A DNA stretch of 50,031 nt from Pseudomonas phage HHBS10_2, in the sequence record PQ287653.1, one strand, 5' to 3'. A program made the position numbers and the translations under genes. Below, one piece after another: positions 45,661 to 47,488 of the stretch. The notes under the pieces were generated by a model that worked only from the letters and a program-made list of their open reading frames with translations, did not search any database and had not been told where the DNA came from. Every line of letters starts with the position of its first letter. The stretch's first letter is position 1.

Positions 45661-47488
45661 TTGTTGTTCCTCTTAGGTTTAGGTTGAACGTTCTGCTCTG
45701 CACTATACGCTTTATCAGTGCGCTGCATTGGTAATACAGAACGTTCACCTAAGTCTAAAAAGACTTTGCCCTTTGCGGGGCTTCGCAGGGAACTAGGTTC
45801 GACTGCGGCACATGTTTCCTAGTGTAGCCTGTTACCAGCGTTTGCTAGACGCCTTGTCTTAGATCGTCCGTAGGGTTCTACGTCTACGGGTCACAAGCCA
45901 GTTACACTCACCCACATTTTAGCCTCATGCCAAGGCCACCATTTCTACGTGTGGTTCACGTTTGCGGACTCTGAGCGCCGTAGCTCCAGCCGTTTATACC
46001 CTCGACGCGGGCCAGTAAGCTTTCATTTGTCAACCTTCCAATCAAGGACTAGCCAACAACCTACTTACATACTGGTGCCACCTAAGTGACATACTGTTCG
46101 AGCTTTGTAAGCCTCTAGGCCCGTTTGCCTTTGTTGGGAGCCATATTACCACTTTCTGTCGTCTTGTCAAGCCTTAGTTTCATTTGCACCAGCAAATTAT
46201 TTTCTAGGCTTAATCAGGACCGGCCAGCATCGCATTTCCCGTTAGCGACGCCTGAGTGGCTAGGCTATGTAGACCAGTAGACATTAGTAGACACTCAAAA
46301 GAGTGCCTTACCAAACCTTACCTTTGTTAGTGTCACATGCAATGATGGCTGCCAGTCTGAAAGCAAAAGGCTTGTCCATCTTGCTGATACGTTCCACCTT
46401 TTGAGCAACAGTTTCCTGGCTCTTAAGGGCAAGGTAGGCTTGACGTTCATTACGCATAGTAGTTCTCCCGTACAAGATGAGGGCCTACTAATGCCTACTG
46501 GTCCACATTGTTAAAGAACGGTGGCATACTTCCCTTGACTTGCAATGCCTGTCAAGCATTCCGGTATGGACATTAAGGGTTCCGAACCCTAAGAGCGGCA
46601 GAAGGATTTTAACCCTTCATTCATATCATCGGCCGTCCCGACTTAGCCTCTCCGTAACACAACTACAGTTGAACATACTTCGCTAACCTTTGTCAATCCC
46701 TAGCTAGATGCCTGCCGGCCTTACACTAACTGGTTCATGCCCTAGAGCCTATCGTGTCATTCCCCATTGTGTCCGTAGACTGGAGAACAAGATTGTCGGC
46801 TCCGACTTACGATTCACACTCTAGACCTTTCGACCTAGCTTGTCAACCCCTGTTTGATACTGGCCATGTTGCTGGGCGATCTCAAACAGTGGGGCCATTC
46901 AACCATGATGCGTCGGTGATAGTCAACTGTTTATTTATACAGGTAGTTCACGCGTATAGAAGTGCACCTGTATGCGTAGCATGATGCATGCCAGGTATGA
47001 GTGTGCTGTTAGCACGTTTTATAAGCCTATACGCGACGGTAGTCGCACATATGCATAAGAACATGTGCTGGCTTGCCAGCGTATAAGCCTGCATCCCTAG
47101 TGGCACTAGGCTTAGAGGCCTATTTGCATGTGAGGGAAAATGTGGTGGAGATAGTGGAGGTACATTACACCCCACCTCCTCATAGATTTTGCCTATAGGG
47201 GTAGGCCAGGGGGTTAGGGGAGGGGGTTCATTAGGTGCATTACCCCTTAAAATTTTCTAGCAGAAATTCTAGCCTATACCTCCCTCCAAAATTTCTAGCA
47301 GAAATTCCTCCCACTAAAAAGTGGGCCTTAAGGTTCTCCTCATGTAGTGACAGGGAGTTACTATGTAGGTGTTCTTCTCATGAAGAGGAGGACATACTAA
47401 CATGTGAGAGGACTATACGCCTTCGGCACTTAATGCTAAAGGTACCATTGCTCACGCAAGTGAGCGTTAAGAATAATAAGAGGCTCTT
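45661..47488. other. 1.8-kb ORF-poor divergent control region (candidate promoters, origin, possible ncRNAs)
   Basis: no ORF >80 aa on either strand; dense inverted and direct repeats. Confidence 0.6.
47243..47312 (+). promoter_or_regulatory. two tandem + strand copies of module 2 (AAAATTT(T)CTAGCAGAAATTC flanked by CCTCC/CTCCC)
   Basis: same element as at 19739-19766; about 180 nt upstream of the tail-fibre operon. Confidence 0.5.

Follow-up and report, generated by a model that had tools for sequence, protein, structure and literature searches.

The left ends of T7-like and phiKMV-like podophage genomes carry a terminal repeat, a mostly open reading frame (ORF)-free leader of 1-1.5 kb with several inward-facing sigma-70 promoters, and small early genes. 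RNase III hairpins between the early genes of T7 serve as a functional precedent. A second point of reference is provided by the bacterial ribosomal RNA (rRNA) operons, rrn, in which boxA recruits NusB/NusE and RNase III cuts leader-trailer helices of 27-44 bp; tethering through boxA has been proposed to aid the formation of these helices, and long untranslated CRISPR transcripts are likewise shielded from Rho by boxA (PMC10250234/PMC7665894/PMC2724277). Both systems are compared here with a gene-poor 1.8-kb region at 45661-47488 in the DNA of Pseudomonas phage HHBS10_2 (sequence record PQ287653.1), the whole 50,031-nt stretch of which is referred to as the window.

This region is probably the terminal control region of a linear podophage genome, in which a leading-end early leader would combine rrn-like antitermination with RNase III-type processing. 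Comparison of sequences demonstrates the components, namely a gene, stems with covariation, a boxA match, conserved promoters, and a stretch homologous to a terminal repeat already published. For the phage, we infer the binding of Nus factors, antitermination, cleavage by RNase III, and the genome end that enters the cell first. The likeness to phage LKA1, which belongs to another family, extends to a homologous first gene, boxA, the enclosing stem, and the promoter order. The window differs from T7-like and phiKMV-like genomes in that its early arm lies at the map end opposite the late operon and on the other strand, both diverging from the repeat. In addition, the phage encodes no RNA polymerase of its own (a family trait), its stems are long-range helices around whole ORFs and not only local hairpins, and its repeat measures 74 bp instead of 298-431 bp.

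Genome Setting

The window is the complete genome of a Paundecimvirus (PA11-like, Zobellviridae) with Pseudomonas aeruginosa as host. Its map is permuted and starts at the terminase gene, the first letter being the ATG of this 535-aa gene. Plus-strand genes run from 47489 across the window end to ~19.5 kb and minus-strand genes from 45660 down to 19785, while the 1.8-kb region is 90-95% identical to 15 Pseudomonas phage records, all PA11-like with genomes of 49-50.5 kb. The late genes crossing the window end, together with these matches, indicate that a complete genome is shown in permuted form.

The region is the point at which the early (minus) and late (plus) arms diverge, bordered by the following genes:

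45394..45660, minus: 88-aa gene, left border
47489.., plus: 197-aa tail-fibre-adaptor gene, right border

The original prediction, made from the sequence alone, had placed the region between divergent early and tail-fibre units, which agrees with these borders, and all the sequence features that it listed are present. It had also described the longest non-coding stretch of the genome, free of ORFs. The two longest gene-free stretches, 45661-46307 (647 nt) and 46458-47488 (1031 nt), do fall here, the remaining gaps being at most ~520 nt. However, the region is split by a real 49-aa gene (46308..46457, minus), the protein of which is conserved despite DNA differences, and the description as ORF-free had to be abandoned.

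The 49-aa Gene and Its Enclosing Stem

The gene, its stem, and the adjacent boxA comprise the following elements:

46308..46457, minus: 49-aa early gene (MRNERQAYLALKSQETVAQKVERISKMDKPFAFRLAAIIACDTNKGKVW), Shine-Dalgarno sequence GGGAGAA at 46463-46469; equivalent of PA11 ORF055
46508-46519, minus: rrn-type boxA (GUUCUUUAACAA), immediately upstream of the enclosing stem's 5' arm
46478..46508, minus: 5' arm of 31 nt, directly 3' of boxA
46267..46297, minus: 3' arm beyond the stop codon of the 49-aa gene, including three GTAGAC repeats
46290-46307, minus: small hairpin right behind the 49-aa stop codon

The 49-aa protein is 96-100% identical across 14 relatives with differing DNA, and 9 of the 13 variable sites are third codon positions, a pattern that points to clear purifying selection. 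Nearly all relatives have the gene annotated. A search of 5.8 billion proteins yielded only 4 relatives, and the only one outside the genus located in an annotated genome is ORF1 of LKA1, a 58% identical homologue that is the first gene of that phage after its terminal repeat. Pfam and PHROG scans gave no family match, but their query was an overlapping 51-aa frame, and consequently they say little about the 49-aa protein.

On minus-strand RNA, the arms of the window pair at 30 of 31 positions, 3 of them as G.U, which become A.C mismatches on the plus strand, and the whole 256-nt stem-gene module folds with z = -7.4. The GTAGAC direct repeats noticed earlier, three copies at 46269-46292, turn out to be part of the 31-nt inverted-repeat arm. 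Each of the six homologues of the 49-aa gene is enclosed by arms of 21-31 nt, located 18-24 nt ahead of the ATG and 10-25 nt beyond the stop codon; in the four homologues found in addition to LKA1 ORF1, the arms measure 21-29 nt at the same distances. LKA1 ORF1 is flanked by 21-nt arms of unrelated sequence, the sole imperfection of which is a G.U on the sense RNA, and the differences between the arms of LKA1, L039, and L040 are compensatory double changes.

The arm pairs were counted by a script over 11 distinct pairs, representing four unrelated arm sequences from two phage families. Among 231 arm positions, 208 are Watson-Crick pairs, 22 are G.U, and 1 is a mismatch on the sense RNA (230/231 paired), compared with 208 Watson-Crick pairs, no G.U, and 23 mismatches on the antisense strand. 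When arms from different families were paired as a control, only 40% of positions paired. The restriction of G.U pairs to the sense RNA and the preserved pairing thus provide strong evidence, on comparative grounds, that the enclosing stem is a selected structure of the sense RNA. Double-stranded RNA of at least ~20 bp formed by sequences flanking the product is given both by the 31-nt arms and by a second hairpin at 45666-45764 (~25 bp), discussed below. As a separate observation, the loop of the post-stop hairpin (46297-46300) reads UUUU in the window, O4, K4, and IME180 and GAAA in other relatives, which looks like a flip of the loop.

The boxA Element

In the genome, GYTCTTTAACAA is matched exactly by the boxA of the window alone, and none of 100 shuffled sequences reaches the observed count. 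This boxA agrees with the core GCUCUUUAACAA at 11 of 12 positions and with the host rrn boxA at 11 of 13. Several relatives agree at 12 of 12, and the full 12-nt core is present in DMTU_1, FBPa8, L037, LKA1, and Klebsiella phage Klyazma. Of 21 positions, 19 are identical between CGCTCTTTAACAAGTCGAGTC of LKA1 and TGCTCTTTAACAAGTCGAATC of the P. aeruginosa rrn leader; in E. coli, the rrn boxA reads UGCUCUUUAACAA (PMC10250234/PMC7665894/PMC2724277). The element occurs on the early strand only, in ten of ten PA11-like phages, L037, LKA1, L039, L040, Klyazma, and CW02.

Some relatives carry a second complete unit upstream, which in PA11 and TC6 surrounds ORF054 (73 aa) and in O4, K4, and IME180 surrounds gp66 (71 aa, an unrelated protein). 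Its order is boxA, a 24-nt arm, a Shine-Dalgarno sequence, the ORF, a small hairpin, the second 24-nt arm, and at once the next boxA. The host-like boxA 17-mer GCTCTTTAACAAGTCRA was also found in 21 IMG/VR contigs (L042-L062), none of which has 16S rRNA behind it. In one of them (L048, 41.7 kb), boxA and 20-nt arms surround 213 nt, and in five others (L042, L047, L049, L051, and L052), boxA is accompanied by a 20-bp hairpin with a loop of 83-84 nt.

The arrangement resembles a bacterial rrn operon in several respects. Tandem promoters are followed by a boxA matching that of the host rrn, boxA is directly followed by the 5' strand of a 21-31-bp helix, the other strand of which lies beyond the enclosed product, and in relatives the unit is repeated in tandem, as for 16S and 23S rRNA. 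In contrast to the rrn operon, the phage helices enclose small ORFs with ribosome-binding sites and not rRNAs. A further parallel is offered by the lambda nut sites and by boxA before CRISPR arrays, where boxA in the nascent RNA guards a long, poorly translated transcript from Rho. The lambda boxA (CGCUCUUA), however, depends on boxB and the phage N protein, and no N-like protein or boxB hairpin was identified in the window, boxB not having been searched for systematically. Unlike that of lambda, the phage element is of the rrn type, a type that works with host factors alone.

The tandem units also bear on an explanation in which the inverted repeats act as DNA, namely as sites of recombination or as the terminal inverted repeats of small mobile cassettes through which early ORFs are exchanged between phages, and not as RNA stems. 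The same boxA and the same 24-nt arms surround unrelated ORFs in PA11/TC6 and in O4/K4/IME180. In the window, the sequence upstream of boxA is that of one copy and the sequence downstream is that of the other, a pattern that recombination between repeats would produce. The module is common to Zobellviridae and Autographiviridae, and the region as a whole is a mosaic of insertions and deletions. On the other hand, all but one of the non-Watson-Crick positions are G.U on the sense strand and would not pair on the other strand or in a cruciform, and no associated transposase, recombinase, or target-site duplication was seen. As a replacement for RNA stems, the DNA explanation is unlikely, although cassette exchange and an RNA role of the arms are compatible and not mutually exclusive.

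Early Promoters

TTGACA or TTGACT boxes occur on the minus strand at 46926, 46846, 46696, 46555, 46170, and 46033. The predicted promoters and an associated element are as follows:

TTGACT 46921-46926, minus: P1, 18-nt spacer, TG-TTGAAT; kept in 7 of 10 phages
TTGACA 46841-46846 and TAGAGT 46818-46823, minus: P2, 17-nt spacer; kept in 7 of 10 phages
46690-46750, minus: 61-nt element ending in the P3 -35 box
TTGACA 46691-46696, minus: P3, weak, with a poor -10 element in the window
TTGACA 46550-46555, minus: P4, weak, with a poor -10 element in the window
46143..46170, minus: P5, TTGACA, 16-nt spacer, TG-extended TAATAT; kept in 10 of 10 phages

Hexamers 16-18 nt apart and aimed at the early genes, the arrangement sought for sigma-70 promoters, are present at P1, P2, and P5. 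In the ten phages compared, the promoter hexamers are conserved while the spacer sequences vary. P3 has a good -10 element, TAACAT, in O4, K4, and IME180, which a cassette deletion has weakened in the window.

The layout has parallels in two other phages. LKA1 has, in order, a terminal repeat, three annotated promoters, the homologous ORF1, a promoter, a gap, and ORF2; its four annotated host promoters stand in the same order relative to the shared gene as those of the window. In the phiKMV-like phage Ab05, an ORF-free leader of 1.5 kb includes five TTGACA-N17-TAnnnT sites. The early promoter array proposed originally is therefore supported by conserved minus-strand boxes with TAnnnT-type -10 elements and by a layout parallel to those of LKA1 (annotated) and Ab05 (predicted). 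The 61-nt element shares 84% identity with Ab05 1088-1148, the two having one orientation with respect to early transcription, and its 20-mer core is found in phiKMV-like contigs ~1.1 kb from the left end. A host origin of the element was considered and rejected, the core occurring in none of 185,579 bacterial genomes.

Leader and Hairpin of the 88-aa Gene

Downstream of P5, the minus-strand transcript is predicted to contain two untranslated elements:

45765..46136, minus: untranslated leader of ~370 nt, between the predicted P5 start and the hairpin
45666..45764, minus: long leader hairpin 5' of the 88-aa gene, z = -6.1

The palindromic GAACGTTC hairpin was noticed from the outset and proved to be real and larger than claimed, with an inner stem of 14-15 bp and an outer stem of 9 bp spanning 45666-45764. 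The inner stem is formed by 45737-45750 and 45681-45695 (about 15-17 bp on the minus-strand RNA), and the outer one by 45755-45764 (GUCUUUUUAG) and 45666-45676 (CUAAGAGGAAC), the latter being the ribosome-binding site of the 88-aa gene with its Shine-Dalgarno sequence. Relatives with flanks 97-99% identical have three unrelated inner-stem sequences with the same fold, and GP100 has a fourth, a perfect 21-bp stem that again gives this fold. The four versions have z from -3.3 to -6.1. In phage Ty, the folding energy is -40.6 kcal/mol for the minus-strand RNA and -29.6 kcal/mol for the other strand, as the G.U pairs work on minus-strand RNA only. By analogy, the hairpin is likeliest to be a putative RNase III-type site, cleavage of which would free the ribosome-binding site. 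Such release of a ribosome-binding site by RNase III is known for lambda N and T7 gene 0.3.

The leader at 45765-46136 has neither an ORF nor codon periodicity. In 7 phages, 5% of its columns are variable, compared with 26-44% at third codon positions of the flanking genes, and it exists among relatives in two unrelated sequence versions, three relatives having a sequence unrelated to that of the window. It is not unusually structured (z = -0.8).

Probable Genome Ends

The elements next to the right of the promoters are as follows:

46951..47165, strand unassigned: conserved non-coding block that adjoins the terminal repeat and has two TATAAGCCT copies and short palindromes
47166..47239, strand unassigned: homologue of the 74-bp direct terminal repeat (probable physical genome ends), identified by homology to O4 and K4

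The O4 and K4 records, deposited in opposite orientations, have exactly the same 74 bp at both record ends, and the counterpart in the window is 47166-47239. The terminal repeat of O4 is given as 74 bp where it is cited in PMC9960094. The TC6 record opens with the last 18 nt of the 74-bp stretch and closes with its first 18-20 nt, 38 nt being missing, which is the expectation for a linear genome truncated inside both repeat copies, where the ends are poorly covered. Breaks within 47112-47240 are likewise seen in the records of IME180, Ty, and PPAT and in three contigs from metagenomes. The published accounts of TC6, PPAT/PPAY, and GP100 contained nothing useful on the termini or transcription of PA11-like phages.

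More distant relatives agree in position. The repeats of Klyazma are 711 bp long, were verified by PhageTerm and Sanger sequencing, and lie at the same map position as that of the window, between the early (minus) genes and the tail-fibre (plus) gene. In the Klyazma paper, which has the O4 paper among its sources, terminal repeats in Zobellviridae are stated to be 74-138 bp. The other repeats of the family (74 bp in O4, up to 138 bp in phiRIO-1 and VpV262, and 711 bp in Klyazma) occupy the map position found in the window. The Klyazma repeat runs 711 bp to the early side of a shared G-run block, whereas the 74-bp repeat of PA11-like phages covers the block itself.

The G-run cluster reported earlier is the genome's sole canonical G-quadruplex motif, both strands considered (GGGGTAGGCCAGGGGGTTAGGGGAGGGGG, 47198-47226, plus), defined by four runs of at least 3 G with loops of 1-7 nt, and it lies inside the 74-bp repeat. 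Its G-runs are invariant among relatives. At the corresponding map position, Klyazma has two G5 runs just outside its repeat, and both ends of the GP100 record (L028 1-45 and the end of L029) fall within a cluster of five C-runs, or G-runs when read on the late strand.

The main alternative to this assignment of the ends is an assembly artefact, in which the cluster of breaks and the 74-bp overlap would result from the G-rich tract and the genome would be circularly permuted. The break points are indeed spread over 47112-47240, that of the GP100 record lies within its own cluster of G/C runs, circular permutation was reported for the related phage CVT22, and an overlap of 74 equals k-1 for an assembler at k = 75. 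Against the artefact stand the identical 74-bp ends of two independent, oppositely oriented records, the repeat cited for O4, the Sanger-verified repeats of Klyazma at the same locus, and the 38 nt lacking from TC6. An artefact is accordingly improbable, and the homology indicates that the genome ends probably correspond to the repeat at 47166-47239, as the proposal of physical ends in this region had anticipated.

The adjacent block at 46951-47165 shows 88-93% identity and no codon periodicity; it is a candidate for packaging recognition from its position only. Two further observations were made here. Metagenome contig L024 (ERZ27283909 k119_85986) has an untrimmed Nextera adapter, GATGTGTATAAGAGACAG, at 1-18, fused to window 47162, four bases before the repeat. 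On the minus strand, 46981-46996 contains a sigma-54-like motif, TGGCAT-N5-ATGCT, the GG and GC of which are kept in relatives with a varying spacer; it may be due to chance.

Proposed Course of Early Expression

Taken together, these elements suggest the following course. The 74-bp repeat would mark the physical ends, the late operon would start to the right behind a structured and conserved leader, and the ~1.5 kb to the left would be the early leader, in which host sigma-70 RNA polymerase would start at P1-P5 and transcribe leftward. Transcripts from P1-P4 would first make boxA, and host NusB/NusE with other Nus factors could render the polymerase Rho-resistant on this mostly untranslated RNA. 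The boxA-adjacent 31-nt arm would then pair with the arm past the 49-aa stop codon, forming a leader-trailer helix like the RNase III stalks of 16S and 23S rRNA. The second hairpin, of ~25 bp, would hide the ribosome-binding site of the 88-aa gene until cleavage of RNase III type freed it.

Several points weigh against this course of events. The boxA of the window departs from the host core at one position (GUU instead of GCU), and GP100 and Ab05 lack boxA by the pattern used. Neither boxB nor boxC was recognised, although no systematic search was made for them, which also distinguishes the phage from the rrn operons. Transcripts from P5 lack boxA and yet span ~470 nt of untranslated RNA, and P3 and P4 have the poor -10 elements listed above. 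A generic promoter scan was not enriched over shuffled sequence (4 found, 2.8 expected), and consequently the case for the promoters rests on conservation and parallel layouts. As regards the ends, the window has only one copy of the 74-bp sequence, so that its identification as a terminal repeat derives from relatives; several assemblies break 4-54 nt upstream of 47166 and not at 47166; and the G-rich tract could itself disturb sequencing. A literature search returned no transcriptome of any PA11-like phage.

A more far-reaching view, which is put forward tentatively and is somewhat less likely than not to hold in full, is that the early leader of PA11-like and LKA1-like phages is a working mimic of the host rrn operon, with frames that serve as sockets for gene exchange and a separate G-quadruplex signal at the ends. 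The boxA would load the host rrn antitermination complex and allow fast, Rho-proof transcription of the incoming genome end. Tethered to the polymerase, it could help the arm to find its partner, and RNase III would release stable mini-messenger RNAs of the small ORFs. The frames of boxA and arms would act as sockets in which unrelated early genes are swapped between phages, and the genome's one G-quadruplex motif, inside the terminal repeat, would act at the DNA ends as a signal of its own.

The promoter array and genome ends are ordinary for T7-like phages, and the 74-bp repeat has already been published for a sister phage, according to the citing source. Mimicry of rrn in phage early leaders, in contrast, appears to be unreported in the literature found. 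That literature does not describe the placement, in two families of virulent Pseudomonas podophages, of the host rrn boxA before helices enclosing small early genes, the tandem unit, or the use of one frame for genes that differ from phage to phage. Mimicry, if functional, would account for the escape from Rho of a 1.5-kb leader that is mostly untranslated, offer phages lacking an RNA polymerase a simple route for taking over host transcription elongation, and point to a mechanism for the exchange of early "host-takeover" genes. In practical terms, the probable genome ends are fixed for a genus of therapeutic phages, and several annotated ORFs of relatives are flagged as artefacts.

Possible Stand-Alone RNAs or Replication Origin

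The conserved blocks at 45765-46136 and 46951-47165 could instead encode stand-alone small RNAs and not a messenger RNA (mRNA) leader and packaging sequence. The low variability of the former (5% of columns, set against 26-44% of synonymous positions nearby) and its start just downstream of the conserved P5 would suit such an RNA. Its folding energy is ordinary, however, no terminator separates it from the 88-aa gene, and three relatives have unrelated sequence in its place. Recent recombination could also account for the low divergence, PP21 being 100% identical here and 93% in the adjacent gene. In the Infernal check against Rfam 15 (45000-48000, E <= 1), no family matched and the only hit was Chlorobi-1, attributable to chance (16.9 bits against a gathering threshold of 50, E = 0.32); ARAGORN found no transfer RNA or transfer-messenger RNA genes. 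The stand-alone non-coding RNAs suggested by the original prediction are therefore rather improbable, and the structures are better read as parts of mRNA leaders.

T7 origins are linked to promoters. A replication origin, which had been suggested as well, could thus coexist with the promoters and would agree with the minimum of cumulative guanine-cytosine (GC) skew in the region, with the largest non-coding space of the genome, and with the palindromes and two TATAAGCCT copies, but it is the least probable of the readings considered, since GC skew follows transcription direction and such a minimum is expected at any divergent point, the GC content of 0.46-0.48 exceeds the genome mean of ~0.44 and leaves no AT-rich unwinding element, and an array of at least 3 iterons with an AT-rich stretch is not present. 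Of the iteron-like repeats with palindromes described at 46,930-47,100, the short palindromes are there, but TATAAGCCT has only its two copies, and the three GTAGAC copies belong to the RNA arm.

Late-Operon Leader

On the other side of the repeat, the leader of the late operon contains the following elements:

47240..47488, plus: leader of the late (tail-fibre) operon, with palindrome, hairpins, and Shine-Dalgarno sequence AAGAGG
47253-47269, duplicated at 47289-47307, plus leader: palindrome AATTTCT-AGC-AGAAATT
47310-47325 and 47450-47465, plus: late-leader hairpins

The sequence at 47298-47488 is 95-99% identical among relatives, which is better conservation than that of the following gene, and the leader folds into several hairpins (z = -4.1). 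G-runs followed by ATTAGGTGCA-TTGAC-N17-AAAATT are common to the PA11-like region and Klyazma, and both Klyazma and the window have the block TACACC...G-runs...ATTAGGTGCATTGAC-N17-AAAATT. This shared block is probably the promoter region of the late operon, judging from its conservation in the two phages. At its -35 position, the window has TTACCC instead of TTGACA.

The palindrome TTTTCTAGCAGAAATTC, duplicated in the leader, has a third copy at 19750-19766, at the other boundary of the late arm. This copy lies at the convergent junction, 16 nt upstream of the Shine-Dalgarno sequence and ATG (19734) of a small minus-strand gene. The late arm is closed at 19474-19500 by a canonical terminator, GGGGAC-AAAAA-GTCCCC-TTTTCTTTT.

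Mosaic Structure and Other Reading Frames

Alignment of ten phages across the region revealed a mosaic, with conserved blocks at 46096-46140, 46216-46530, 46700-46800, 46951-47250, and 47298-47488. They are separated by cassettes that some phages have and others lack, including one of 320 bp inserted in FBPa8, further inserts in PP21 and in PA11, TC6, and Ty, and an ORF cassette at 46534-46700 in PA11, TC6, O4, K4, and IME180. In O4 (L004, 123-590), an HNH endonuclease gene is inserted between the terminal repeat and the tail-fibre-adaptor gene, a further sign that the region tolerates insertions. In the Salinivibrio phage CW02 (L041, 1018-2108), a divergent region that is ORF-free over 1.09 kb contains TTGTCAA boxes and two copies of boxA, which suggests that the layout is family-wide. 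In GP100, the first ORF is not homologous to the 49-aa gene and has no enclosing arms.

Codon periodicity is absent from every block of the region other than the 49-aa gene. The tblastn matches of a 51-aa ORF at 46295..46450 reflect DNA conservation only, and this frame, having no coding signal, was rejected. The same applies to ORFs of 75 aa (minus), 76 aa (plus), and 85 aa (plus), which have neither a PHROG or Pfam match nor codon periodicity. PA11 ORF056 is probably spurious, as it is frameshifted in other phages and overlies the 3' arm and P5. More generally, several ORFs annotated here in relatives (PA11 ORF056, DMTU_1 CDS0019-0026, and K4 gp01; records L002, L006, and L008) are probably annotation artefacts, because they lie over promoters or RNA arms or on the wrong strand and their frames are not conserved.

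Enrichment of 6-8-mer words gave nothing decisive except TTGTCAA and CTATACGC, and copies of the AGGTGCATT motif elsewhere in the genome do not exceed chance expectation. Outside the region, AT-rich tandem repeats (TA runs, units of 18-24 nt) are located at 3654-3733, between the portal gene, which ends at 3375, and a plus-strand gene at 3759.

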